Shown here: positions 4,723 to 19,383 of the stretch, piece by piece
Numbering within the stretch: the stretch's first letter is position 1
How the letters are laid out: each line of letters opens with the position of its first letter
Assembly: GCF_003324675.1 (NCBI RefSeq)
Contig: NZ_CP030918.1
Coordinates: forward strand, 3,090,001 to 3,122,000
Length of the DNA stretch: 32,000 nucleotides
Source of the DNA: Paracoccus suum
GTDB taxonomy: Bacteria; Pseudomonadota; Alphaproteobacteria; Rhodobacterales; Rhodobacteraceae
Direction of reading: 5' to 3'
Program-made: the position numbers and the translations under genes
The notes under the pieces: generated by a model
What the model saw: only the letters and a program-made list of their open reading frames with translations
Databases searched by the model: none
What the model was told of the DNA's origin: nothing

Positions 4723-5266
4723 GTTTCTCCAGCACCTTCTGCATCGCGGCTGGCTCCACGGCGATCTGCTGGCCCGTCGCGTCGCTGCACGAGGCCGAAA
4801 GCTCGGCCGCCATCAGCGCCGCCGCGCGCGGGGGCCAGTTCACCCATGCGTCCCGTTCCTCCCGCGCCAGCCGGAACACCAGCGCCAGCGCGCGGGCCCG
4901 CTCGATCAACTCCCCCTTCAGCTTCTGGAGCCGGATGCGCCGCTCCTGCGCCTTCAGCACCTCGTTCGCGGTCTTGGCCTGCAGGAAGGTCGTCCCGCCA
5001 CCCACCGCAGGGACCGCCAGACCCTGTTCGCGGAGCGTGTCGCCGACGGCGGCGACCGCCGCCTCGGGGACAGGCTTCAGCTTCGGCGCGGGCGGCTTGC
5101 GGGTCTTGGACGGGTCGGTGGTGTCCGCCCGCCGCGCGTCGCTGGCGGCAGCGTTGATGCTGCCGTCGGGATAGAGGACCAGCCGCTCGGCCGTCTTCGC
5201 CTTCTGGATCGCGCCCCGCGACAGCCCGACATGGGCGGCGTACTGGCGCTCGCTCATGCCCCGCAT
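4670..5266 (-). CDS. Putative terminase small subunit (N-terminal HTH)
   Basis: 198-aa ORF directly upstream of TerL, overlapping it by 53 nt. N-terminal HTH-like MSERQYAAHVGLSRGAIQKAKTAERL, coiled central region. Assigned by position and architecture only. Confidence 0.6.
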   Translation of the reverse strand: MRGMSERQYAAHVGLSRGAIQKAKTAERLVLYPDGSINAAASDARRADTTDPSKTRKPPAPKLKPVPEAAVAAVGDTLREQGLAVPAVGGGTTFLQAKTANEVLKAQERRIRLQKLKGELIERARALALVFRLAREERDAWVNWPPRAAALMAAELSASCSDATGQQIAVEPAAMQKVLEKHVRAHLDELAEVRPDFR

Positions 5267-5297
5267 CGACGGCTCCGATTATCATTCAAGATCATGT

Positions 5298-5316
5298 GCT
5301 TATCGAGTTGATAAGC
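5298..5316. promoter_or_regulatory. Perfect inverted repeat GCTTATC-N5-GATAAGC in the AT-rich divergent intergenic region upstream of terS (operator or cos-related candidate)
   Basis: Read directly: gcttatc gagtt gataagc, embedded in the AT-rich tract gattatcattcaagatcatgtgcttatcgagttgataagc. Confidence 0.4.
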
Positions 5317-5379
5317 GCGGCGGACAGAGGGAACGTGCCTCCAGAAGGACGATGCAACTCGACCCAAGGAGCCAGCCCG

Positions 5380-5640
5380 ATGACCCGCCGCGCGACCGAC
5401 AGTGAGACCGCTCCCGCCACCGGTTCGAGGGAGCGGTCGAACAAAGCCCTCGACGCCTTCATCGCCGCGAAGACGGAGATCGACGCGATGCTGGAGCGGC
5501 TCGCCGCCCTCAGCGCCGACCACTTCGAGACCAGCCCCGACGAGATCAACTGGGGCCATGTCGGCACCCTGAACCACTACCGCGCCAAGCTGCGCGAGAT
5601 CACCGACATGGCCTTCAGCGAAGGCGAACACGCCGAGTGA
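5380..5640 (+). CDS. Hypothetical small protein (86 aa)
   Basis: The track ORF is 5296-5640. I place the start at ATG 5380 because AAGGAG (5366-5371) lies 8 nt upstream. Sequence MTRRATDSETAPATGSRERSNKALDAFIAAKTEIDAMLERLAALSADHFE...; no family recognised. Confidence 0.55.
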   Translation: MTRRATDSETAPATGSRERSNKALDAFIAAKTEIDAMLERLAALSADHFETSPDEINWGHVGTLNHYRAKLREITDMAFSEGEHAE

Positions 5641-5730
5641 GACGACCCGCTCCCGGTCCCGCCCGCCGACTGGCGGGCTCGACCTCGTAGAAGGGCCCGC
5701 ATTCCGCGCGCCCCGATACGGGAGACGACG

Positions 5731-6315
5731 ATGACCAAGCTTTCCGACACCCAAGCCCTGATCCTGAGCGCTGCCGCGCAGCGCGAGGACCGCAACGTCC
5801 TGCCGCTCCCCGGCTCGCTCCGCGGAGGCGCCGCCGCCAAGGTGGTCGGCGCGCTGCTCTCGCGCGGACTGATCGCCGAGACGACGATTGCCAGCGAGAC
5901 CAAGGCCGACGCCGCGCTCAACCGCATCTGGCGCAACGACGAGGACGGCCGTGCCATCCTCCTGCACATCACCGACGCAGGGCGCGCCGCCATCGGCGTC
6001 GAGCCGGAGGGCGGCGACAGCGCGCCCGCGGGCGCCGACGCGGCGCCGAGCGCCGTAGCCGCGCAGGACGCTCCCGGCGAGGCCGACGCCGCGCCCAAGG
6101 CGCGCACACCGCGCACGGGCACGAAGCAGGCCAAGCTGATCGAGATGCTCCGCGCCGAGGGCGGCGCCACCATCGACGAGATCGTCACCGCCTTGGACTG
6201 GCGGCCGCACACGGTGAGGGGCGCGCTTGCCGGCGCGCTCAAGCAAAAGCTCGGCCTGACCATCACCTCCGAGAAGGTCGACGGAAGGGGCCGCGTCTAC
6301 TCCATCCGCGACTGA
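5731..6315 (+). CDS. DUF3489-like winged-helix protein
   Basis: 194-aa ORF. The C-terminal TKQAKLIEMLRAEGGATIDEIVTALDWRPHTVRGALAGALKQKLGLTITSEKVDGRGRVYSI matches the DUF3489 pattern as I remember it. GGGAG lies 8 nt upstream of the ATG. Confidence 0.7.
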   Translation: MTKLSDTQALILSAAAQREDRNVLPLPGSLRGGAAAKVVGALLSRGLIAETTIASETKADAALNRIWRNDEDGRAILLHITDAGRAAIGVEPEGGDSAPAGADAAPSAVAAQDAPGEADAAPKARTPRTGTKQAKLIEMLRAEGGATIDEIVTALDWRPHTVRGALAGALKQKLGLTITSEKVDGRGRVYSIRD

Positions 6316-6594: not shown

Positions 6595-7592
6595 CGCAGC
6601 CCCTCCGGCAGGGATCCCAGAAAGGCCGTCACGAACTCCGCCGCGAGCGGCGGCACGATCGCATTGCCGTAGCCCCGCAGCAGCCCCATGCGGCCGGATA
6701 TCCCATCAGCCAGCGGGAATGTTCCGGGCTCAACCGGTCGCCAGCGCCCATCCCGGCAGAAGAGCCAGTCAGGATTTCGCCAGACGCCGTCCGTCGCGCA
6801 GGTCCCGGCGGGGTCGGTGACTTCGACCAGACGACCAGCTTCAGCGTCCTGCGGCTCGCATCGGTGTTGCCGGCCGCGTTGTATCGCTTCGTGGCGGGCG
6901 AGCCCGCCATCGCCGTCGGCCAACCCGCCAGCCAGACCTGTCGGCCGAGCAGCGCATTGATCGGCACCGACCGGCATTCCGATCCGTCCTTGTGATCCCT
7001 CGCCGAGGCCGTCGCCCAACCCGCGAGTGACTGCGTCCAAGGCGACGGCGCCGAAGAACAGGCGTTGGCGGATGTGCGGCGCGCCGATGCCCGCAGCCGG
7101 CAGATCGGCCGCCGCGACGGCGTAAGATGCCGCTTCCAGGTCAGCCGCCAGAGCGTCGAACCACGCCCAGCCAGTCGGGCCCTCAACTGCCGCGCGAGAC
7201 TTTCTGCCAACCGGTCCGAGCACTGCCGCGCTCGCGACCTGCTCGCCGAAGACGAGCTCCGGGCGGCAGGCTGCGACGAGCCGCAGGAATGCCGGGGCGA
7301 GATGGCGGTCATCGTCCTGTCCCTTGCGCTGCCCGGCCTGACTGAAGGGCTGGCAGGGCGGCGAACCGGTCCAGACGGACAGATCGTCCGCTACGCCCGC
7401 GAGTCGCAGCGCATATGGCCAGCCGCCGATGCCGGCGAAGAAATGACATTGCGCGAAGCCGCGCAGCTCGGTGGGCTCCACCTCGAGGATGGACCTTTCG
7501 TCCACTTGGCCCGCGGGCAGAAGCCCGGCCGCGATCAGTTCCCGCAGCCAGGCGCAGATCGCGGGATCGGCATCGTTGTAGTAGACGGCCAT
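6591..7592 (-). CDS. DNA (cytosine-5) methyltransferase, 333 aa
   Basis: Motif I FFAGIGG, motif IV GSPPCQPFS, motif VI-like FGEQV, motif VIII-like HIRQRLFF, motif X GNAIVPP. The true start is MAVYYND at 7592, which overlaps the upstream stop as ATGA. The 591-aa track ORF is an artefactual 5' extension. Confidence 0.9.
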   Translation of the reverse strand: MAVYYNDADPAICAWLRELIAAGLLPAGQVDERSILEVEPTELRGFAQCHFFAGIGGWPYALRLAGVADDLSVWTGSPPCQPFSQAGQRKGQDDDRHLAPAFLRLVAACRPELVFGEQVASAAVLGPVGRKSRAAVEGPTGWAWFDALAADLEAASYAVAAADLPAAGIGAPHIRQRLFFGAVALDAVTRGLGDGLGEGSQGRIGMPVGADQCAARPTGLAGGLADGDGGLARHEAIQRGRQHRCEPQDAEAGRLVEVTDPAGTCATDGVWRNPDWLFCRDGRWRPVEPGTFPLADGISGRMGLLRGYGNAIVPPLAAEFVTAFLGSLPEGLR

Positions 7593-8914
7593 CAGGCGGC
7601 TGCATCGGCCTTGTCGCCCAGCCGCTCGGCCTTCACCTCGGCGAAAATCCGGCCGTCGCCGTCGAGGATCGCCTCGCGCCCGGTGTCGGCCTGCCAGCGT
7701 TCGACGGCGACATCGACGTAAGCCGGGCTGATCTCCATCGCGAAGACGCGTCGGCCGTTCGCCTCGCCCGCCATGATCTGCGAACCCGAACCCGAGAACG
7801 GCTCGTAGCAGAGCCCGCCCCGGGCCACATGCTGGCGCATCGGGATGCCGAACGCATCGAGCGGCTTCGGTGTCGGATGGTCGGGCCGGTCGTCCTTGGC
7901 GAAGCTGGGCAGCGCCCACGTCGATGCGAGGGTTTCCTCGGCCACCTTCGGCGGCCGGTTCGGGCGGCGCCAGCCCATGAAGCAGGGCTCGTGCTTCCAG
8001 AGGTAATGGGACCGGGTCAGGACACCGCGGTCCTTGACCCAGATGATCTGCTGGTGAACGAACGCGCCGGCCTTGTCCCAGCAGGCTTCCAGCATCGCCT
8101 GGCGGCGGGAGGCGTGCCAGCAATACCAGGCGGCATCTTCGGCGATGGCTTCCGCCACCGCGGCGGCAATGAAGCCGTCGTAGAGTTCCGCGCCTTGCGA
8201 GGAATCGTCCCAGGTCACGCCGTAGCTCTGACTCCAGTCCTTGTTCCGCGTCGGATGGTTCGAGCCATCGTAGTCGACGAGATACGGCGGGTCCGTTGCG
8301 AACAGGATCGCCCGCTCGCCATTCATCAGGCGGCGCACCTCGGCAGCGCTGGTGCTGTCGCCGCACAGCAGCCGGTGGTCGCCGAGGATCCAGAGATCAC
8401 CCGTCCGCGAAGCCGGGTTGCGCGGTGGCTCGGGGATGGTGACCGGCGGCACGGAGCCCCCGGCGCCACCCTCTTCCTCGCCGTCCCCCTCCGGCACGAA
8501 GGCCAGTAGCTTGTCGAGTTCGCCGTCCGAGAACCCGACCAGCGACAGGTCGAAGTCTTCGGCCAGCAACTCGTTCAACTCGGCCGAGAGCAGCGCCTCG
8601 TCCCATGTCCCGAGTTCGGTCAGCTTGTTGTCCGCGATCCGATAGGCCCGGCGCTGGGCCTCGGTCAGATGGCCGAGCACGATGACCGGTGCCTCGGTCA
8701 GCCCCAGTTGGGTCGCGGCCAGAACGCGCCCATGGCCTGCGATCAGCTCCCCGTCCTCGCCGACGAGGCAAGGCACGGTCCAGCCGAACTCGGCCATGCT
8801 GGCGGCGATCTTCACGACCTGGTCGGCCCCGTGCACCTTCGCGTTCTTCGCGTAGGGCTGCAGGCGCGACAGCGGCCAGGTCTCGATCCGATCCGGGGCA
8901 AAGCTCAGCGTCAT
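7592..8914 (-). CDS. ParB-like nuclease domain fused to a beta-class DPPY DNA methyltransferase (N6-A/N4-C family)
   Basis: 440 aa. The N-terminus LQPYAKNAKVHGADQVVKIAASMAEFGWTVPCLV...IAGHGRVLAA is ParB/Srx-like. DPPY motif in LFATDPPYLVDYDG, followed later by the AdoMet motif EPFSGSGS (order IV then I = beta class). GAAGGA RBS lies ~11 nt upstream. Confidence 0.9.
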   Translation of the reverse strand: MTLSFAPDRIETWPLSRLQPYAKNAKVHGADQVVKIAASMAEFGWTVPCLVGEDGELIAGHGRVLAATQLGLTEAPVIVLGHLTEAQRRAYRIADNKLTELGTWDEALLSAELNELLAEDFDLSLVGFSDGELDKLLAFVPEGDGEEEGGAGGSVPPVTIPEPPRNPASRTGDLWILGDHRLLCGDSTSAAEVRRLMNGERAILFATDPPYLVDYDGSNHPTRNKDWSQSYGVTWDDSSQGAELYDGFIAAAVAEAIAEDAAWYCWHASRRQAMLEACWDKAGAFVHQQIIWVKDRGVLTRSHYLWKHEPCFMGWRRPNRPPKVAEETLASTWALPSFAKDDRPDHPTPKPLDAFGIPMRQHVARGGLCYEPFSGSGSQIMAGEANGRRVFAMEISPAYVDVAVERWQADTGREAILDGDGRIFAEVKAERLGDKADAAA

Positions 8915-9033
8915 CTGCGGGCCGGTCCTTCAGGATCAGGGTGGATACCCTCGGCTCCGGACTCCGGGGGCCAGGCTAGACTCCACGCGGGGTCCAGCGG
9001 CCACCAGGGGTGTCCAGCTTCAAGGGTTTGATT

Positions 9034-9049
9034 TTTCGATGTTTCGATG
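9034..9049. repeat. Perfect tandem octamer TTTCGATG x2; a third copy lies at 9357-9364
   Basis: Read directly in the lower-GC intergenic region upstream of the methylase operon. Confidence 0.5.
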
Positions 9050-9164
9050 GGGTTCAGGCGGCGCTGGCTTCTGGGTGGCTTCCCAAAAAATCGGCCCTGT
9101 CGCTGGCGATGCGTCGCGCTTCGCCCGCCAGCATACGAATATCGTCAGGAAGGAACCAAGAACT

Positions 9165-9210
9165 CAATGGGTTAGCCCATTGGACCCCCACTGGACCCTT
9201 CGCTGGACCC
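9165..9210. promoter_or_regulatory. Palindrome CAATGGG-TTAG-CCCATTG followed by three direct TGGACCC repeats at 11-12 bp spacing (operator/iteron-like)
   Basis: Palindrome at 9165-9182. TGGACCC at 9181-9187, 9192-9198 and 9204-9210. An inverted copy GGGTCCA lies at 8990-8996. Confidence 0.45.
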
Positions 9211-9321
9211 CGGAAGCCAGCGGCGCGGCCTCTGCCTGCGCGCTCCTCTCCCGAGCATATTCGTTTTCTAACGGCCTCGTCGAAATGTGTAAGGGCCTGC
9301 GATGTACACCCGAAAATTTCC

Positions 9322-9768
9322 TCAGAGGACGATTTTTCTTGACAGCCGATTGGCGTTTTCGATGACGAACTGCTGTGACCGCCGGGGCGACGGCACGCGA
9401 CCGTTCAGCCGCCAAGTGATCACCGCCAGACCGTATTGCCAGCGCTTGGTCGCGGCCGTGCGCGACAGGCCGAACTGCCAGCAGATCGGCTTCCACGCCA
9501 TGCCGTCGGCGCGGGCCCAGACGAGGCGCCCATCCTCGGGCTCGAGCCAGCGCAGCCAGAGCATCGCCTCCTCGGCCTCCGTGATCTGTCGCGGGCTGGG
9601 CCTCGGGCGACGCATCTGCGGCTCCTGACCGACCTTGTCGGCGAAGCTGTGGAAATACTCGGGCCATGCGTTGAAGAAGCCCTGCGGCATCACGCCCGGC
9701 ATCTGCCGCATCACGCCCGCCGCAAGTTCAAGCCGATCCTGCACCTGCGCTGTGGTCCACTCACCCAT
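9322..9768 (-). CDS. Phage-associated hypothetical protein with C-terminal HTH-like segment (DUF6362-like, from memory)
   Basis: 148-aa ORF that overlaps the upstream gene by 8 nt. Contains ...WPEYFHSF...EAMLWLRWLEPEDGRLVWARADGMAWKPICWQFGLSRTAATKRWQYGLAVITWRLNG. Confidence 0.6.
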   Translation of the reverse strand: MGEWTTAQVQDRLELAAGVMRQMPGVMPQGFFNAWPEYFHSFADKVGQEPQMRRPRPSPRQITEAEEAMLWLRWLEPEDGRLVWARADGMAWKPICWQFGLSRTAATKRWQYGLAVITWRLNGRVPSPRRSQQFVIENANRLSRKIVL

Positions 9769-9964
9769 GACGCGCCTCCCGTTCCCGCTTGCCGTAGAGC
9801 CGCTCGCCGAGCTGGCGCACCAGCTCGCGCTCCGGCCAGGTCAGGCGGTCGTCGTCTATGGCGACGGCCAGCAACCCCTGTTCCTTCCAGCCGTCGCGCT
9901 TGACCTCGTCGGGGTTGCGGCGGTGACCGCCATAACCCTTGGGCGTGAACCGCATGCCGCTCAT
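9761..9964 (-). CDS. Hypothetical phage protein (67 aa)
   Basis: ATGA overlap with the RuvC-like gene stop (9961-9964). Charged, non-GC-artefact composition (MSGMRFTPKGYGGHRRNPDEVKRDGWKEQGLLAVAIDDDRLTWPERELV...). Confidence 0.5.
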   Translation of the reverse strand: MSGMRFTPKGYGGHRRNPDEVKRDGWKEQGLLAVAIDDDRLTWPERELVRQLGERLYGKREREARHG

Positions 9965-10497: not shown

Positions 10498-10617
10498 GGG
10501 TGGTCTCCTCTTCTGGTTGGCTGCTCGGGTGGAAGACGACGGTGGCCTGGTGCTTGGCGGTACGGGGCCGCCGTCGTCGGATCGGAATGTGCAGGGTGCG
10601 TCGGAGCCCGCGCGCGG

Positions 10618-11826
10618 ATGCCCTCGACGTATGGAAGGCGAGCCAGCCAGCGGTCTGAGGGCTGGGTACTCGTCCGCGATCAGTATGACGACGGCGGCAT
10701 CTCCGGCGGCACGCTGGATCGCCCCGGCCTGCAGCGGCTGCTGGAGGACATCGAGGACGGGCTGGTCGAAGTGGTGGTGGTCTACAAGATCGACCGCCTC
10801 AGCCGCTCCCTGGCCGACTTCGCCAAGTTGGTCGAGGTGTTCGACCGCAATGGCGTGACGTTCGTCTCGGTCACGCAGTCCTTCAACACGACCACGTCGA
10901 TGGGGCGGTTGACCCTGAACATCCTGCTCAGCTTCGCCCAGTTCGAGCGGGAGGTCACGGCCGAGCGGATCCGCGACAAGGTCGCCGCCAGCCGGAAGAA
11001 GGGCATATGGATGGGCGGGGTGCCGCCTTTCGGCTACCGTGTCGAGAACCGGAAGCTGGTGGTCGACGAAGAGCACGCTGCGCATGTGCGCTGGATCTTC
11101 GCCCGCTTCCTCGAGATCGGGTCCTGCACGGAACTGGCGCGGGAGGTCGGCACGCGGGGACTTCGGACGCCCCGCGGCAACCGGATCGACAAGAAATACA
11201 TCTATCGGATGCTCAGCAACCGCGCCTACATCGGCGAGGCGGTCCACAAGGGCGACAGCTATCCCGGCGAGCACCACGCCATCATCGACCGCGAGCTGTG
11301 GGACAAGGTTCACGCCATCCTGCAGGAGAGCCCCCGGAAGCGCGCCGCGCGCACGCGCGCCGACACGCCCGCGCTGCTGAAGGGGTTGCTCTACGGCCCC
11401 GACGGCGCGGCCTTCTCGCCGACCCACACGCGCAAGGCCGGGCGGCTCTACCGCTACTACGTCAGCCAGACGGTGCTGAAGCATGGCGCGGCGTCGTGTC
11501 CCATCGGCCGCGTGCCCGCCGGCGAGATCGAAGCGGCCGTCATCGAGCAGTTGCGCGCCGTGTTCCGCCAGCCTGAGATTGTCGCGGGCACATGGAAGGC
11601 GGCGCGGGTGCAGTACGGTGAGATCACCGAGGCCGACGCGCGCGCGGCGCTGATTCGGCTCGACCCGCTGTGGGACGATCTGTTCCCGGCCGAGCAGGCG
11701 CGCATCGTGGCGCTGCTGGTCGAGCGGGTCGAGATCGTCACGGAAGGCCTGAACGTCCGGCTGCGTATGGACGGACTGGCCGGGCTGGCGCGCGAAATCA
11801 CCGCCGACATAGGAGCAGCCGCATGA
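10618..11826 (+). CDS. Large serine recombinase, N-terminally truncated (catalytic Ser region missing); likely inactive remnant
   Basis: Strong resolvase/recombinase-domain blocks: EGWVLVRDQYDDGGISGGTLDRPGLQRLLEDIEDGLVEVVVVYKIDRLSRSLADFAKLVEVFDRNGVTFVSVTQSFNTTTSMGRLTLNILLSFAQFEREVTAERIRDKVAASRKKGIWMGG. The first in-frame ATG (10618) lies only 13 codons before the EGW block. No Y-x-R-x-S-S/T segment is present in frame. Confidence 0.75.
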   Translation: MPSTYGRRASQRSEGWVLVRDQYDDGGISGGTLDRPGLQRLLEDIEDGLVEVVVVYKIDRLSRSLADFAKLVEVFDRNGVTFVSVTQSFNTTTSMGRLTLNILLSFAQFEREVTAERIRDKVAASRKKGIWMGGVPPFGYRVENRKLVVDEEHAAHVRWIFARFLEIGSCTELAREVGTRGLRTPRGNRIDKKYIYRMLSNRAYIGEAVHKGDSYPGEHHAIIDRELWDKVHAILQESPRKRAARTRADTPALLKGLLYGPDGAAFSPTHTRKAGRLYRYYVSQTVLKHGAASCPIGRVPAGEIEAAVIEQLRAVFRQPEIVAGTWKAARVQYGEITEADARAALIRLDPLWDDLFPAEQARIVALLVERVEIVTEGLNVRLRMDGLAGLAREITADIGAAA

Positions 11827-12221
11827 CCCGCGCCACCCCGGTCCCCGATACTGTCACCATCCATGTCCCGTTCCGCCTCGTGAAGCGTGGGGGGCGGAAG
11901 GAGATGCAGTTGCCCGAAGGCGCGTCCACCCCGCGCCGCCCCGATGACGCACTCGTCAAGGCACTGGCCCGCGCGTTTCGCTGGAAGCGGATGCTGGAGT
12001 CTAGCGAGTACGCAACGGTCGCCGAATTGGCCGAGCGCGAGGGGATTGCGCCCTCTTACATGACCCGCGTCCTGCGTCTGACACTGCTCGCGCCCGACAT
12101 CGTCGAGGCGATCCTGGACGGGAAGCAGGGGCCATTGGTGACGCTGGTGCGGGTGATGGAGCCGTTCCCGGTGGAGTGGAACGACCAGTTGCCTTCCCTT
12201 CGCAATAGCCGCATGACGTAA
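11823..12221 (+). CDS. Recombinase-associated HTH protein (132 aa)
   Basis: ATGA overlap with the recombinase stop. Contains PFRLVKRGGRKEMQLPEG...LARAFRWKRMLESSEYATVAELAEREGIAPSYMTRVLRLTLLAPDIVEAILDGKQ, a block I recognise as a frequent companion or C-terminal extension of such recombinases. Confidence 0.65.
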   Translation: MTRATPVPDTVTIHVPFRLVKRGGRKEMQLPEGASTPRRPDDALVKALARAFRWKRMLESSEYATVAELAEREGIAPSYMTRVLRLTLLAPDIVEAILDGKQGPLVTLVRVMEPFPVEWNDQLPSLRNSRMT

Positions 12222-12230
12222 GAATACGAC

Positions 12231-12262
12231 TTGCTGACCGTTTTTTGCTGCACTAAACACAC
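12231..12262 (+). promoter_or_regulatory. Candidate promoter/operator of the RHH-MTase operon: TTGCTG direct repeat (12231-12236, 12245-12250) and a TAAACA -10-like element
   Basis: TTGCTG, then a 17-nt spacer, then TAAACA, ending ~7 nt before ATG 12266. No SD is visible, so the mRNA may be leaderless or nearly so. Confidence 0.3.
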
Positions 12263-12265
12263 ATC

Positions 12266-12478
12266 ATGGCGCGACCGAAGGGACGAACGAAGACAGCCAG
12301 GGTCACGATTAACCTGGACGAACGAGCGTACGCCCTGTTGCTCGCCTTCGCGGAGCGTGACGACGCCCCGGTGGCGCAGGTTGCTCGAAAGGCGGTCGTG
12401 GACTTCCTCAATCGCGTCGAACCAACAATAGATCAAGGCTCGCTCCCGTTCGTGCGCCCGCAAAGAGAAGACCACTAA
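12266..12478 (+). CDS. Ribbon-helix-helix (CopG/Arc/MetJ-type) DNA-binding protein, 70 aa; putative controller of the cassette
   Basis: MARPKGRTKTARVTINLDERAYALLLAFAERDDAPVAQVARKAVVDFLNRV shows basic N-terminal beta-strand (VTINLDE), helix, helix. Its stop overlaps the M1 start (TAATG). Confidence 0.75.
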   Translation: MARPKGRTKTARVTINLDERAYALLLAFAERDDAPVAQVARKAVVDFLNRVEPTIDQGSLPFVRPQREDH

Positions 12479-13662
12479 TGGCGCACGGAACACACGAACC
12501 CACCCCCCAAAAGACGGATAGCTGGTCAGCTTCGCTAGATCCGGAAACAGCAGCAAGGTCGTCTTTGTCAGAGGTTGATTGGGGCTTCCCCGATCGGCGC
12601 AGCCATAGCGAGATCGAAGGCGTCCACCCTTATCCTGCCAAATTCATTGCGGAAATCCCGCGAGCACTCATCAACTGCTTGCCACTGCCTCCCCACAGCG
12701 GTGTGCTGGACCCGTTCTGCGGGAGCGGTAGCAGTTTAGTTGAAAGCCAGCGACTAGGCATTCCCGCTGTCGGAGTCGACCTGAACCCAATCGCTTGCCT
12801 AATGTCTCGCGTTAAGACCTCGGCCTGCCCGACCGATATCGAGCAGCTTGCTGCTCGGATTGTAGCGAGCTCAGAGACAGCTTCTGATGGCGAGATTCCT
12901 GAAATTCCTAATCTTGATCACTGGTTCCAGCCAAATGTCCAGGTGGAGATCAATAAGATTGCTCGTTCTATCGCGACTTCCCCAAGTGAGGCTCGCGATG
13001 CGCTGAAGCTAGCACTTTCGAGTATTATTGTCAGAGTCTCTAATCAGGAAAGCGATACCCGATATGCGGCGGTACAGAAGGATATCGATCCTTCCGCCGT
13101 CCCCACGCTTTTTTTGCGCGCGGTCAACCGCATCAACGCCGCTCTCCAAAATAGACCATATCCCTTGACCTCCGTGGATGTAATTGAGAACGACATCCTG
13201 AAGGTAGAGCCGAGCATGATTGGGCGACCGATTGGATTGGTCGTAACATCTCCTCCATACCCGAACGCATATGAGTATTGGCTTTATCACAAATACCGGA
13301 TGTGGTGGTTGGGGTATGACCCATTGAAGGTGAAAGCTGACGAGATTGGTGCGCGGGCTCACTTCTTCAAGAAGAACCACCACACGGCCGAAGATTTTGC
13401 ACGGCAAATGAGACAGACGCTAAAGCTTCTGGGAAACGTGTTGGTGAAGGGGGGCTTTGCAAGTTTCGTGGTTGGCCGCTCGAAGATCCATGGGAAGATT
13501 TACGACAACTCGGAAATCATCACAGATGAAGCTGCACCGCTTGGCTTCACTCCGTTCTTCGTAACAGAGCGGGAACTGTCAGCGAACCGAAAATCATTCA
13601 ACCTTTCTCATGCAAACATTAAGACAGAAACCGTCTTGGTGCTGCGGAAGGAGGTCGAGTGA
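12478..13662 (+). CDS. DNA methyltransferase M1, N4/N6 family, SPPY motif (predicted N4-cytosine), motif I before motif IV
   Basis: 394 aa. HPYPAKF...VLDPFCGSGSSLVESQRLG (FCGSG at 12715-12729), DLNP, and VVTSPPYPNAYEY (SPPY at 13249-13260). Lies in the low-GC region. Confidence 0.85.
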   Translation: MAHGTHEPTPQKTDSWSASLDPETAARSSLSEVDWGFPDRRSHSEIEGVHPYPAKFIAEIPRALINCLPLPPHSGVLDPFCGSGSSLVESQRLGIPAVGVDLNPIACLMSRVKTSACPTDIEQLAARIVASSETASDGEIPEIPNLDHWFQPNVQVEINKIARSIATSPSEARDALKLALSSIIVRVSNQESDTRYAAVQKDIDPSAVPTLFLRAVNRINAALQNRPYPLTSVDVIENDILKVEPSMIGRPIGLVVTSPPYPNAYEYWLYHKYRMWWLGYDPLKVKADEIGARAHFFKKNHHTAEDFARQMRQTLKLLGNVLVKGGFASFVVGRSKIHGKIYDNSEIITDEAAPLGFTPFFVTERELSANRKSFNLSHANIKTETVLVLRKEVE

Positions 13663-15146
13663 TGCGGCTCCGTTGGCATAACTACAAGTACTACCCCTAC
13701 GAGAAAGAGCTCGCTTCTCGGGAGGTGACTTCACTGATCTGCCCGTCAGGAGCCAATGAAGTACAAGATGGCCTGGATTTGCGCGAAGCAAGGCCCGGTT
13801 CCGGAGCGGAACGCCTGACCTATTTCAAGGGCTACGAGAATGGCTCTGGGTTTACTTCAACGGTGCAAGCTGAGCTGGAGGAAACGGCACGAAACGGAAA
13901 AAACCGCCAGGCGACACGTTATTCAGTTCATGGCCTGCATGAATACAAAGGGAAATTTAATCCGCAAGTCGCCAAGGCGCTTCTTAATATTTTCAAGGTT
14001 GAGCCTGGGCAGACTGTCCTTGATCCGTTCTGTGGTAGCGGCACGACTCTCGTTGAGTGTTGCCATTTGGGTGTCGACGCGGTCGGCACTGACATAAATC
14101 CACTCGCAGTCTTCTTGTCGAACGCAAAGCTACTTGGCTTGTCGGTCCCGCCCTGTGAACTCCGAAAAGCGCACAAGAACATTTCGGCCCAGCTTCGATC
14201 TTTTGATGGAAGGAAAGCCCCTCAGTCTTCTGCTGCGCGTCGCGAATACCTACTGAAATGGTTTGATCCTGAAATCTACGACGAAATCGAAGGCGTTCGG
14301 GCCATCATCCTCGACATTGCCGGCGAGATGTCGCCAATTTTTCTATCTGTAGCTAGCAACCTTCTTCGTGAGTATTCCCAGCAGGACCCACGAGACTTGC
14401 GGATCAGGAGGAGGACCTCGCCACTTCCGTCGAATTCGTTCACATCTGCGCTCTTGGATGCGCTTCCACAAATTATTGATCGGATACTTTCCGCGCGAGA
14501 ACTCATTGGTTCACGGGCACCTCTCGGTCGAGCGGTACTCTGTGACGTATCCGAGTTGACGGCAGATAGCGCAATGCGGAAGTTCGATGCCGCCATTACC
14601 AGCCCGCCATATGCCATGGCACTCCCGTATATTGACACGCAACGCCTTTCGTTGGTTTGGCTTGATCTCCTGGCGCCCAATCAAATTCTCGAACTCGAGG
14701 CATCACTGATCGGAAGTAGAGAGCTTCGTGGAAACTCAAAGCGGGAACTGCCTCAATTGCTCGCATCAAACGAGGCAGAATTGCCGGATCAAGAGTACGA
14801 ACTTTGCATCAAGCTCGAGGATTTGCTCGGTGAAGAAGACGGGTTTCGCAGGCGTGCCGTTCCGTCGCTTCTGTATCGATACTTCGCGTCGATGAAAGCA
14901 AACTTCAGCTCAGTGAACAGGCTGATGAGAGAGGGAGCTCCCTACGCTTTGATTGTTGGCCACAACCACACTACAATCGGGGGCGTTCGTCATGACATCG
15001 ATACCCCCGAACACTTGTCGCGACTGGCTACTGCGGTCGGCTGGAAAGTAGAAGAACTCATTCCGCTGCAAACCTACCGGCGCTACGGATATCATGTGAG
15101 TAATGCGGTTGCAGCAGAAACGCTGATCATACTTCGGAAAGAATAG
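13662..15146 (+). CDS. DNA methyltransferase M2, paralogous to M1, SPPY motif (predicted N4-cytosine), with an extra ~45-aa N-terminal segment
   Basis: 494 aa from ATG 13662 (the track starts at GTG 13659). The start overlaps the M1 stop (TGATG). LHEYKGKFNPQ...VLDPFCGSGTTLVECCHLG (14028-14042), DINP, AITSPPYAMALPY (14601-14612). Confidence 0.85.
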   Translation: MRLRWHNYKYYPYEKELASREVTSLICPSGANEVQDGLDLREARPGSGAERLTYFKGYENGSGFTSTVQAELEETARNGKNRQATRYSVHGLHEYKGKFNPQVAKALLNIFKVEPGQTVLDPFCGSGTTLVECCHLGVDAVGTDINPLAVFLSNAKLLGLSVPPCELRKAHKNISAQLRSFDGRKAPQSSAARREYLLKWFDPEIYDEIEGVRAIILDIAGEMSPIFLSVASNLLREYSQQDPRDLRIRRRTSPLPSNSFTSALLDALPQIIDRILSARELIGSRAPLGRAVLCDVSELTADSAMRKFDAAITSPPYAMALPYIDTQRLSLVWLDLLAPNQILELEASLIGSRELRGNSKRELPQLLASNEAELPDQEYELCIKLEDLLGEEDGFRRRAVPSLLYRYFASMKANFSSVNRLMREGAPYALIVGHNHTTIGGVRHDIDTPEHLSRLATAVGWKVEELIPLQTYRRYGYHVSNAVAAETLIILRKE

Positions 15147-15170
15147 CACGCCGATCTTCAATCGTTGTTT

Positions 15171-16565
15171 TTACCAGTTCGGCGAAATACCTGCGGGTAA
15201 CCAGCACGCACCTTGACCCACGAGCGCACCACCGGCTGAAGCAGTGGCGAGCATCCCGTCTACCGTGGCGAAGAGTGGGTCAGCTGGATCGATGAATGTT
15301 GCCTTGAAAGTTGGATCGGCTGGCGTCGGCCACTCTAAGATCATTGGGTCGTTTGCTGTCGGGACATGGAATCCGTGTGCTGCGGCATGATCGCGAATGG
15401 CACGAGCAGGCGCGGCCGGCACGACCATCCTCACGTCACCATGGCCAGATTCACCAGGAGCGTATCCGTAGACCATTACATTGGTGCTAGAGGATGCTAC
15501 TTCGTAGGCTCCCAAGTTTGAGACATAACGCATGCGAAGGTCGAACTCGGCGCGAGGCCTCTGATACTTTCCTTGAAATACGCCGAACCTCATCGTGCCG
15601 ATGGTCGCAACTGGTACGCTTACGTTTGCTGTGCCACTGCCTCCGGAGAAGTGCCTTGCACTGTCTCGGTTGAGGCGAATGACCAATCCAGCAGCGCCGC
15701 CCGCTAGCGTGGATCCGGTCAAGGCTGCTGCCCCGAGTGTCGGTGTCGCGATGCCTGGTGCGAAGAGTACATATGGGGGGAAGGGCGGGCGCGGGCTTGA
15801 GGTAAGCGGTCCGGCAGATGGAGCAACCGTCGCTGTGCTGGGCGGGGCGGAAGGCGCTGCTGCCGCTGAACCCAAAGCTGCTACAGTGCCGCTCTTAACC
15901 GAGACAGGGGGGAACTTGATTAGCGGCTTGAGTCCGATTTTGCTTGATGCCGCCCCGCTGCTTCCAGAAATGGATTGCGTTGTACGTGGCGTAGGGGCCA
16001 CGCCAAGCACTCCGGCGGCGACTAGAGGTGCGAGGTCGGCAAGTGCCGTCACAGTTGAGAGCCCGGGCCGAGGTCCATTGAACCAAGCGTCAATTGCTGC
16101 CGCGACGTCTGAAAGGACGTGATCGGGATCGCCGGTCGATGAATCCAAGAGCAAACCTGCCTCGATGTTCATCCCAGAAATGCCCGGCGTAGTCAGATTT
16201 GCCGATCCAACATAGGCGGCCTGAGTGCCGTCCTGCCTTGTGAAGTGATATACCTTTGGGTGAAATAGCCCCGCAGAGAAGCTAACAACCCCGATCCTTG
16301 CGTTTGCTCTTGGGGTTCCAACGAGATTAACCAGCGTTTCGATATCTGGCTCTCCGGTTTCTCCGCCGTTTGACCCAATTACACAATTCGTCAATCTATC
16401 TTGCGACTTCAGCTCATTTATTACTGGCGCCAAAGGAGCCAGTCCGTCTGCACTAAAGTATCCCGTTTGCCAACGTAGGGCGTCGACAGCCAGGGGACTG
16501 AAGCTGGCGAGCCATTCTCCAAGAACGTCAGACGTGTTTCGAGATGCTGAGTCGATGTATCTCAA
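15171..16565 (-). CDS. Single-HKD phospholipase-D-superfamily nuclease (putative restriction endonuclease/effector), 464 aa, TTG start
   Basis: HKD motif LFHPKVYHFTRQDGTQAAYVGSANLT (aa 100-125, nt 16197-16262). A/S/P/G-rich linker spans aa ~185-295. C-terminal ~170 aa have no family I recognise. The start is TTG at 16565, with an in-frame TGA 2 codons upstream and GGAG 9 nt upstream. Convergent with M2, 24-nt gap. Confidence 0.8.
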   Translation of the reverse strand: MRYIDSASRNTSDVLGEWLASFSPLAVDALRWQTGYFSADGLAPLAPVINELKSQDRLTNCVIGSNGGETGEPDIETLVNLVGTPRANARIGVVSFSAGLFHPKVYHFTRQDGTQAAYVGSANLTTPGISGMNIEAGLLLDSSTGDPDHVLSDVAAAIDAWFNGPRPGLSTVTALADLAPLVAAGVLGVAPTPRTTQSISGSSGAASSKIGLKPLIKFPPVSVKSGTVAALGSAAAAPSAPPSTATVAPSAGPLTSSPRPPFPPYVLFAPGIATPTLGAAALTGSTLAGGAAGLVIRLNRDSARHFSGGSGTANVSVPVATIGTMRFGVFQGKYQRPRAEFDLRMRYVSNLGAYEVASSSTNVMVYGYAPGESGHGDVRMVVPAAPARAIRDHAAAHGFHVPTANDPMILEWPTPADPTFKATFIDPADPLFATVDGMLATASAGGALVGQGACWLPAGISPNW

Positions 16566-16955
16566 GGGTACTCACTCCGGTCGGGGGATGTGGTACGAAT
16601 AACAGCCGCTTATGTTAAAGCACAAGCAGCAAGAGATAGTGTGGGGGCTGCCTCAACCGGGAAGTGGGCCTCGCGGGCGGGCCGCTATAAGAAAACCTTC
16701 TCCGCGCGCTTGGTATCATGCGTTTGCATCGCGCTGCGAAGGGTTTGATTTCAGTTCCATCTAACGAACACCCCTGTCGTCGAAGTGTTCGGAACTTGGT
16801 CGAAAACTAACAAGTAATTTCAATCTGTTGCAAGCTATTCACCAAATTCGCGCAGTCATGAGGTCCGGAGAATATCGGCCCTGAGAGACCGCTTCCGGCC
16901 CGCCCGGTGCCAGGGCCAGTGCTCAGCCCCTCCCGCATAACCCTCGAATACAACG

Positions 16956-16978
16956 GAAAAATCCGGCCGCAGCCGGAT
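16956..16978 (-). terminator. Rho-independent terminator of tRNA-Ser
   Basis: On the minus strand: ATCCGGC-TGCG-GCCGGAT followed by TTTTT, 27 nt downstream of the tRNA 3' end. Confidence 0.75.
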
Positions 16979-17004
16979 CAAGAGAACGCTTTCGCGAGGG
17001 CAAA

Positions 17005-17094
17005 TGGCGGAGTGGAAGGGATTCGAACCCTCGAGACGGTTTCCCGCCTGCACCCTTAGCAGGGGTGTGCCTTCGACCACTCGGCCACCACTCC
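17005..17094 (-). tRNA. tRNA-Ser (anticodon GCU), CCA encoded
   Basis: Minus strand: GGAGTGGTGGCCGAGTGGTCGAAGGCACACCCCTGCTAAGGGTGCAGGCGGGAAACCGTCTCGAGGGTTCGAATCCCTTCCACTCCGCCA. The 7-bp acceptor GGAGTGG pairs with CCACTCC. Anticodon stem CACCC/GGGTG carries loop CT-GCT-AA. Long variable arm and GGTTCGAATCC T-loop are present. Confidence 0.95.
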
Positions 17095-18285: not shown

Positions 18286-19383
18286 TCAGCCGTTGAAGAG
18301 GAAGTGCAGGACGTCCCCGTCCTTGACCTCGTAGCCTTTGCCTTCGACCCGGAACCGACCCGCCTCGCGCGCGCCCGCCTCGCCATTGCCTGCAATGTAA
18401 TCGTCATAGGCGATGGTCTCGGCCCGGATGAAGCCACGCTCGAAATCACCATGGATGACGCCCGCCGCCTGCGGGGCCATGGTGCCGCGCGTGATGGTCC
18501 AGGCGCGCGCCTCCTTGGGGCCGACGGTAAAATAGGTCTGCAGACCCAGCAATTCGTAGCCGGCGCGGATCAGCCGGTCGAGGCCGGCCTCCGTCAGCCC
18601 CATCTCGCCCAGGAACTCGGCGGCCTCGTCGGCCGGCAGTTGCGACAGCTCTTCCTCGATCCGGGCCGAGATGACCACATGGCCCGCGCCCTCTGCCTCA
18701 GCCCGTTCGGCGACCGCGGCTGTCAGGGCGTTACCCTCGGCCGCCTCGGCCTCGGCGACGTTGCAAACGTAAAGCACCGGCTTGGCGCTCAGCAACTGCA
18801 GCATGTCCCAGGCGCGACGATCATCCTCGGCAATGGTAAGGCTGCGGGCGGGACGCCCGGCCTCAAGCGCCACCAGTGCCGCCTTCAGCAGCCGCTCTTG
18901 CGCGACGGCATCCTTGTCGCCGCCCTTCACCTTGCGAGACAGGTTCGCCAGTCGCCGCTCGATCGATTCCATGTCGGCGATCATCAGCTCGGTCTCGATG
19001 GTCTCGGCATCAGCCAGCGGGTCGATCCGGCCCTCGACATGGGTGATGTCGCCGTCCTCGAAGCAGCGCAGCACATGGGCGATGGCATCGACCTCGCGGA
19101 TGTTGGCGAGGAACTGGTTGCCGAGCCCCTCGCCCTTGCTGGCGCCCTTCACGAGGCCGGCGATGTCGACAAAGGTGATGCGCGTCGGGATGATCTGCTT
19201 GCTGCCGGCGATAGCCGCCAGCTTGTCGAGGCGCGCATCCGGAACGGCCACGTCGCCGACGTTCGGCTCGATGGTGCAGAACGGAAAGTTGGCCGCCTGG
19301 GCGGCCGCGGTGCGGGTCAGGGCGTTGAACAGGGTGGACTTGCCGACATTCGGCAGCCCGACGATTCCCATGCGAAAGCCCAT
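18286..19383 (-). CDS. ychF: Redox-regulated ribosome-binding ATPase YchF
   Basis: 365 aa. [20 protein letters not shown]-loop, [21 protein letters not shown], and the C-terminal TGS-like [13 protein letters not shown]. Confidence 0.95.

Follow-up and report, generated by a model that had tools for sequence, protein, structure and literature searches.

A long conserved tether in a probable PLD-B3 restriction endonuclease of Paracoccus suum

Does a gene whose product joins a nuclease domain, through a low-complexity middle, to a C-terminal domain that matches no sequence family encode a restriction endonuclease and, if so, of which kind? This question is raised by gene R of Paracoccus suum, which is located at 15171..16565 on the minus strand of the 32,000-nucleotide stretch analyzed here (contig NZ_CP030918.1, positions 3,090,001 to 3,122,000; referred to in the following as the window). 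R begins with TTG, and its 464-residue product comprises a phospholipase D (PLD) domain, a tether and a B3-like domain. An earlier note, made from the sequence alone, called this architecture unusual and the C-terminal domain an orphan; however, the arrangement is the known one of BfiI and R.NgoAVII, and NCBI already places the protein in the NgoFVII family. We place R, as an uncharacterized enzyme, in the known class of PLD-B3 Type IIS endonucleases, its long conserved tether being the sole distinctive trait. It is likely, in our judgment, that R is the nuclease of a four-gene cassette of the BfiI/NgoAVII class, in which a small putative ribbon-helix-helix (RHH) protein and two methyltransferases, M1 and M2, are encoded on one strand and R convergently on the other.

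The R open reading frame (ORF), its TTG start and a GGAG nine nucleotides 5' of that start (minus strand, ...CCGGAGTGAGTACCC-TTG) are all present as the earlier note described them, and the NCBI record holds an identical 464-residue protein with the same start, named "NgoFVII family restriction endonuclease [Paracoccus suum]". At E ≤ 1e-3, 323 homologues were found; of the 120 listed, almost all have lengths of ~445–495 residues and match R over the full length. Homologues in such number, matching full length at similar size among those listed, are not a product of chance. An alignment of 115 homologues, on which the conservation values given below for R are based, contains 29 invariant columns and retains all catalytic residues. 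Opposite R lies an ORF of 175 residues (15595..16122, plus strand) that had been dismissed as spurious. Antisense open frames of 92–202 residues were present in 20/20 homologous genes looked at and, since neither their position nor their length is conserved, they are a by-product of composition.

The TTG start had also been read as a sign of weak translation of a toxic product. At the conserved MRYIDS N-terminus of 29 distinct R-family genes the start codon is ATG in 12, GTG in nine, TTG in seven and GTA in one, while relatives sharing only the N-terminal domain use ATG in 25 cases, GTG in nine, TTG in two and GTC in one. These frequent non-ATG starts (17 of the 29 family genes) are compatible with low translation of the nuclease, and to that extent the suggestion stands, although they are no proof of it.

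The N-terminal domain (residues 1–187; 16005..16565, minus strand) is a PLD/HKD nuclease domain. It is delimited by Pfam PF09565 (RE_NgoFVII, an N-terminal PLD domain), by Foldseek and by predicted local distance difference test (pLDDT) values of 86–98 in the AlphaFold2 (AF2) model; the helix formed by residues 175–183 is part of it. PF09565 scores 36.7 bits over residues 30–142, the cut-off being 23.8. The HKD catalytic motif H102-x-K104 ... G120-S121-x-N123 (16197..16262, minus strand), which in R reads H102-P-K104 ... G120-S121-A-N123, is invariant in the alignment, as is E135 on the C-terminal side of the motif, and no second HxK occurs in the chain. Sequence comparison with the Protein Data Bank (PDB) returned a single match, BfiI (2C1L), at the HKD motif, with the HxK...N...E residues aligned. 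PADLOC contains no restriction endonuclease model for R and gave only weak generic PLD matches.

The full-length AF2 model (mean pLDDT 90.9, predicted template modelling score (pTM) 0.54) is consistent with this assignment. Its best Foldseek match is BfiI (E 1.6e-11, 448 columns) and its fourth-best R.NgoAVII (E 8e-7, 486 columns, both domains aligned). The PLD domain of SauUSI (root-mean-square deviation (rmsd) 3.0 Å over 185 columns), NucT and Zucchini (template modelling (TM) scores of 0.67 and 0.54, both target-normalised) were also matched, and PLD3/4 and Tdp1 are among the lower matches. The rmsd of 18–19 Å between the R model and both BfiI and R.NgoAVII is high because the domain orientation differs or is uncertain (pTM 0.54), not because the fold does. 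By motif and by its PLD alpha/beta fold, R is thus a PLD-superfamily nuclease with one HKD motif per chain, like Nuc, the N-terminal domain of BfiI, NucT and Zucchini, which agrees with the kinship first proposed for it.

We modelled residues 255–464 separately to characterize the C-terminal domain (residues 257–464; 15174..15797, minus strand), whose boundaries follow AF2 and Foldseek and include a family-specific N-terminal extension (residues 257–292), and obtained a pLDDT of 97 and a pTM of 0.92. Among PDB structures, Foldseek ranked BfiI first (prob 1.00, E 2.4e-3, 158 columns) and the B3 DNA-binding domains of ARF5 and ARF2 next; the B3-like N-terminal domain of LlaJI.R1 was matched with prob 0.97 and a target-normalised TM of 0.60. 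B3 or B3-like DNA-binding domains make up the four top-ranked distinct structures (E < 0.05), of which two belong to restriction enzymes; the remaining matches are noise. The top matches therefore point to the DNA-binding pseudobarrel fold as defined in PMC3973309, and a seven-stranded B3-like DNA-binding pseudobarrel with helical caps is the predicted fold, at modest structural significance. A guess in this direction, offered as weak in the earlier note, is borne out by the model.

The likeness is one of structure. Residues 255–464 had no Pfam match even at E ≤ 1, in which R differs from R.NgoAVII and R.CglI; an NCBIfam search returned nothing covering the domain, and PDB sequence searches, with the single sequence and with a 115-sequence profile, left it uncovered. 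An echo within it, RLNRDS...GTANVSVP, resembles the plant B3 pattern KxLTxSD...RLxIP. The plant B3 domains, the N-terminal domain of EcoRII (EcoRII-N) and that of LlaJI.R1 share the predicted fold with no detectable sequence homology, but the R domain has extra N- and C-terminal elements and is fused to a PLD nuclease in place of a PD-(D/E)XK nuclease or a transcription-factor module.

A profile of the C-terminal domain compared with 1.84 billion representative proteins matched 119, each of them either a nuclease of this architecture, complete or as a fragment, or a member of a sister PLD family ~400 residues in length; no other fusion partner of the domain was found among these matches. Residues 257–295 are ordered (pLDDT 87–97) and contain the invariant residues P263, Y265, L287 and G293, and therefore form part of the C-terminal domain as an N-terminal extension. 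The extension (257–292) is missing from the ~400-residue sister family. The R-family domain (~208 residues) is larger than that of BfiI and has this conserved extension. Eight polar residues of the domain are invariant (D301, R304, T312, N314, R336, H375, D377 and R379), and R338 is conserved in ~90% of the homologues; they are candidate contacts for the sequence-specific binding in the major groove, by an N-arm and a C-arm, that characterizes B3-like domains.

Directly convergent to R lie the genes for M1 (12478..13662, plus strand, 394 residues) and M2 (13659..15146, plus strand, 495 residues), each with the motifs DPFCGSG ... SPPY. M1 matches Pfam PF01555 and, over its full length, the PADLOC Type II methyltransferase model PDLC03364 (E 1e-127); M2 matches PF01555/PF01170 and, likewise over its full length, the PADLOC MTase_II model PDLC03377 (E 5e-146). 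The two are paralogous (29% identity over 269 residues), and in each the SPPY motif follows DPFCGSG (FxGxG) after ~175 residues. SPPY suggests N4-cytosine methylation, with N6-adenine methylation possible, and both are probably N4-cytosine methyltransferases. In the window, a further 440-residue ORF with a PF01555 N6/N4 DNA methylase domain is located at 7592-8914 on the minus strand, ~3.5 kb away from the cassette; no nuclease stands out as its partner.

We compared the 24 R-family loci that have enough flanking sequence (loci are designated L001 and so on). Homologues of M1 and M2 adjoin R in 24/24, convergently in 23 and co-directionally in L064. These loci span Alpha-, Beta- and Gammaproteobacteria, Gemmataceae, Myxococcota, Leptospirillia and Verrucomicrobiae. 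L001 carries an IS21-type insertion (IstB and transposase; 7586-9834) between the nuclease gene and its two methylase genes. Neither in the window nor in L001, L002 or L004 was a helicase or ATPase gene found next to R, and the flanking genes differ between loci.

The metal-independent Type IIS enzyme BfiI of Bacillus firmus (2C1L) and its isoschizomer BmrI have the same domain order as R, with the PLD domain N-terminal and the B3-like domain C-terminal, and BfiI is the best structural match both for full-length R and for its C-terminal domain, at ~13% sequence identity. At its locus, R has two SPPY amino-methyltransferase genes as neighbours, and no gene for an ATPase partner was found beside it; BfiI too is accompanied by more than one methyltransferase, these being cytosine-N4 enzymes (PMC3973309). 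The ATP-dependent R.NgoAVII and R.CglI (4RCT) have the same domain order and a PF09565 N-terminal domain. It is improbable, though less so than the other alternatives considered here, that R follows this second pattern, recognizing its site but remaining inactive on its own until a DEAD-family N/H helicase-ATPase is present and hydrolyses ATP. The Pfam family of the N-terminal domain, the NCBI name and the rank of R.NgoAVII among the full-length structural matches would all suit such a reading, the more so since R.NgoAVII and BfiI look alike and are set apart by exactly the helicase-ATPase and ATP requirement (PMC4267654). However, no helicase or ATPase gene lies by R in the window or in the three independent loci named above, whose flanks are mutually unrelated, whereas the NgoAVII and CglI systems consist of three genes, for one methyltransferase, R and a DEAD-family N/H helicase, according to PMC4267653. 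The two PF01555 amino-methyltransferases found here instead of one are a feature of BfiI. With two such enzymes and no conserved helicase or ATPase by R, the organization therefore resembles that of BfiI rather than that of NgoAVII/CglI. Our search of the literature since 2015 for NgoFVII PLD restriction enzymes found nothing.

R departs from BfiI in the segment that joins its domains. Residues ~185–295 are indeed of low complexity, as had been claimed (A 19%, P 15%, S 14%, G 13% and T 10% in residues 185–295), but they are not all linker, since residues 257–295 belong to the ordered and conserved C-terminal domain, and the ~110-residue linker originally proposed was too long. The tether proper, defined by pLDDT and family composition, is a Pro/Ala/Ser-rich segment of residues 188–256 (15798..16004, minus strand), in which predicted disorder is limited to ~191–210 and ~221–250 (pLDDT 42–61 in AF2; ~50 residues), with a conserved seven-residue motif in between. 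Its length, measured between the anchors L187 and P263, is 75 residues in R and varies from 56 to 107 (median 71) among the homologues, a comparison that the earlier note had recommended; proline (20%) and alanine (15%) are abundant in it across the family. Since the homologues likewise have a long, proline-rich tether, it is a conserved family trait and not the result of local drift. R thus does not have the short extended linker of ~20–25 residues, packed on both domains, that is expected of BfiI-type enzymes, and its tether is about three-fold longer than the linker of R.NgoAVII (residues 165–187, 23 residues; PMC4267654).

The motif within the tether, L212-K-P-L-I-K-F218 (15912..15932, minus strand; consensus LxPLxxFP, P219 being the next residue), has a constant length of seven residues in 115/115 sequences, and both L212 and L215 reach a conservation of 90% or more. 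In the full-length model, block 211–220 reaches a pLDDT of 92 between the disordered stretches that flank it. Furthermore, the motif is retained in relatives that have the same PLD domain but other C-terminal domains and that are 41–50% identical to R over residues 1 to ~222 (L039, 5992-8811; L045, 6001-8821; and ~35 further loci). Because the motif is conserved in relatives with other C-terminal domains, its docking site is, we infer, the PLD module. The long tether and its conserved motif are the R family's one real departure from BfiI.

The C-terminal domains of these N-domain-only relatives begin with W-x-K-K-L-S-x-S, a sequence that resembles strand one of the plant B3 domains. Of these loci, L039 and L045 were examined, and in both the partner is a single Eco57I-like gamma-class methyltransferase. 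The same PLD module thus occurs with different C-terminal domains and different methyltransferase sets, which points to a modular combination of cleavage module, recognition domain and methylase, the latter two being swapped.

The family-wide conservation of the tether also bears on a second alternative, namely that R is a decayed or silenced remnant, its low-complexity middle arising from relaxed constraint, and that the cassette amounts to a methyltransferase pair. The weak TTG start, the lack of a PADLOC endonuclease model matching R and the truncation, in this genome, of the recombinase of the element that appears to carry the cassette (described below) could be cited for it. However, the R ORF is intact and full length, the alignment shows no variation in the catalytic residues or in 29 columns, both domains are modelled at a pLDDT above 90, and the whole family retains the Pro-rich tether with its motif, so that the middle does not reflect local decay; we consider decay quite unlikely. 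Least probable of all is that the ligand of the C-terminal domain is not DNA and that R is a PLD-family toxin or phosphodiesterase outside restriction since, although the domain has no sequence-level match to DNA-binding families and Foldseek gives it E-values of no better than 1e-3 to 1e-2, the four top distinct structures are B3 or B3-like, the linkage of R to two DNA methyltransferase genes is strict, and the domain is confined to the R architecture or fragments of it among the 1.84 billion representative proteins.

If R is, as we favor, the nuclease of a BfiI-like cassette, its mode of action may be outlined by analogy with BfiI (PMC4081073). Two R chains would dimerize through their PLD domains to form one composite active site, each B3-like domain would read an asymmetric site, and the active site would cut both strands sequentially, a short distance from the site. 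Cleavage would be metal-free and would proceed through a covalent phosphohistidine intermediate at H102. M1 and M2 would methylate the asymmetric site, one strand apiece and probably at N4 of cytosine given their SPPY motifs, and so protect the host. The tether and its docked motif would probably position or gate the nuclease relative to the bound site.

More tentatively, and we would not put this beyond a minority chance, the tether with its motif may be a regulatory device common to a wider superfamily of domain-swapping PLD restriction enzymes instead of a passive spacer. Two versions of this proposal can be envisaged: (i) the motif could plug or clamp the PLD dimer until the B3-like domains bind their sites; or (ii) the ~50 flexible residues could widen or vary the cleavage reach in comparison with BfiI, or permit action in trans. 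Either version, if true, would amount to a new form of coupling between recognition and cleavage in Type IIS enzymes.

Several points weigh against assigning R to a BfiI-like cassette. For dimerization, metal independence, the place of cleavage and the base that is methylated, the proposal relies on analogy. The structural similarity between the C-terminal domain and B3 is modest (E 2e-3 to 4e-2; TM 0.43 when normalised to the 210-residue query), and no sequence profile ties the domain to B3, EcoRII-N or the C-terminal domains of BfiI or NgoFVII. Inter-domain confidence in the full-length model is low (pTM 0.54). Finally, a partner protein of R may be encoded elsewhere in the genome.

The fourth gene of the cassette is a small ORF of 70 residues (12266..12478, plus strand) whose stop overlaps the start of M1. 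Its Pfam hints, to RHH_9/ParD/RelB, are weak (E 0.05–0.1). Homologues were detected by tblastn 5' of M1 in nine of the closer loci (L001, L005-L010, L012 and L015), with a partial match in L014, and a small ORF of 67–83 residues lies directly 5' of M1 in every locus inspected (besides the window, L001, 12660-12911; L002, 10077-10283; L004, 10160-10363); those of L002 and L004 are only 15–22% identical. This ORF probably encodes an RHH regulator. It is co-transcribed with the methylases and not with the nuclease, in which it differs from classical C-proteins.

The restriction-modification system is horizontally acquired: the GC content of the cassette is 51–58%, compared with ~70% for the genome, and the cassette lies beside a tRNA-Ser gene. 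A block of DNA homology spanning 10642-17020, which holds the cassette and a gene for a large serine recombinase (10642..11826, plus strand, 5'-truncated; Pfam Resolvase, Recombinase and Zn_ribbon_recom), is matched in L006, L007, L008 and L010, the sources being Paracoccus shanxieyensis (82%), Tropicibacter (74%), an HGW Alphaproteobacterium and Devosia (69%). By this shared homology, the cassette and the recombinase look like a single mobile element. In the window the block starts inside the 3' end of tRNA-Ser(gct) (17005..17094, minus strand; 3'-end sequence CTCCGCCA), and in different genera the element is located at tRNA-Ser genes with differing anticodons (gct, cga and gga; L007, 5472-5561; L009, 5473-5562; L010, 5520-5609; L012, 6055-6142), L006 and L008 having only a stub that resembles such a 3' end. 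No direct repeats of the tRNA-Ser 3' end that could serve as att sites were found in the window or in related loci.

The recombinase gene is truncated at ~10642 (window 10540-10760), whereas in other loci it runs into a canonical N-terminus with the catalytic serine (CAVYTRKSSEEGLEQEF...). As the segment with this serine is missing, the element is probably immobile in this genome. The alternative that the recombinase ORF is split across the element junction was rejected, since elsewhere the gene runs straight on into that N-terminus, so that the window copy is a truncated one.

Between the start of R and tRNA-Ser, a non-coding stretch of ~260 nucleotides (window ~16743-17004) is 79–86% identical across genera, including Devosia, even though the R protein there is only 57% identical. 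A terminator-like hairpin lies in this stretch just past the tRNA. A structured RNA was considered and rejected, as Rfam returned only the tRNA and sub-threshold noise and the RNAalifold covariation term was ~0 except at the terminator hairpin. The stretch may have a regulatory role or may form an end of the element to which the recombinase binds. Beyond the tRNA, ychF is located at 18286-19383 of the window, ~1.7 kb from R, and in the Corynebacterium locus L039 ychF (4762-5967) directly adjoins the relative that shares only the N-terminal domain. The proximity in both loci is probably a coincidence.

These findings do not overturn the current understanding of restriction enzymes of this kind. 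However, PLD-B3 restriction enzymes are few in number, and the R family, present in several phyla and always together with two dedicated methyltransferases, would add a probable new specificity to them. The occurrence of the PLD module and its tether motif with varied recognition domains and methyltransferases illustrates the modular evolution of restriction enzymes. Furthermore, the family would serve as a natural experiment in which cleavage geometry can be related to the length of the tether and to a docking motif, a comparison relevant to the engineering of PLD-based programmable nucleases.

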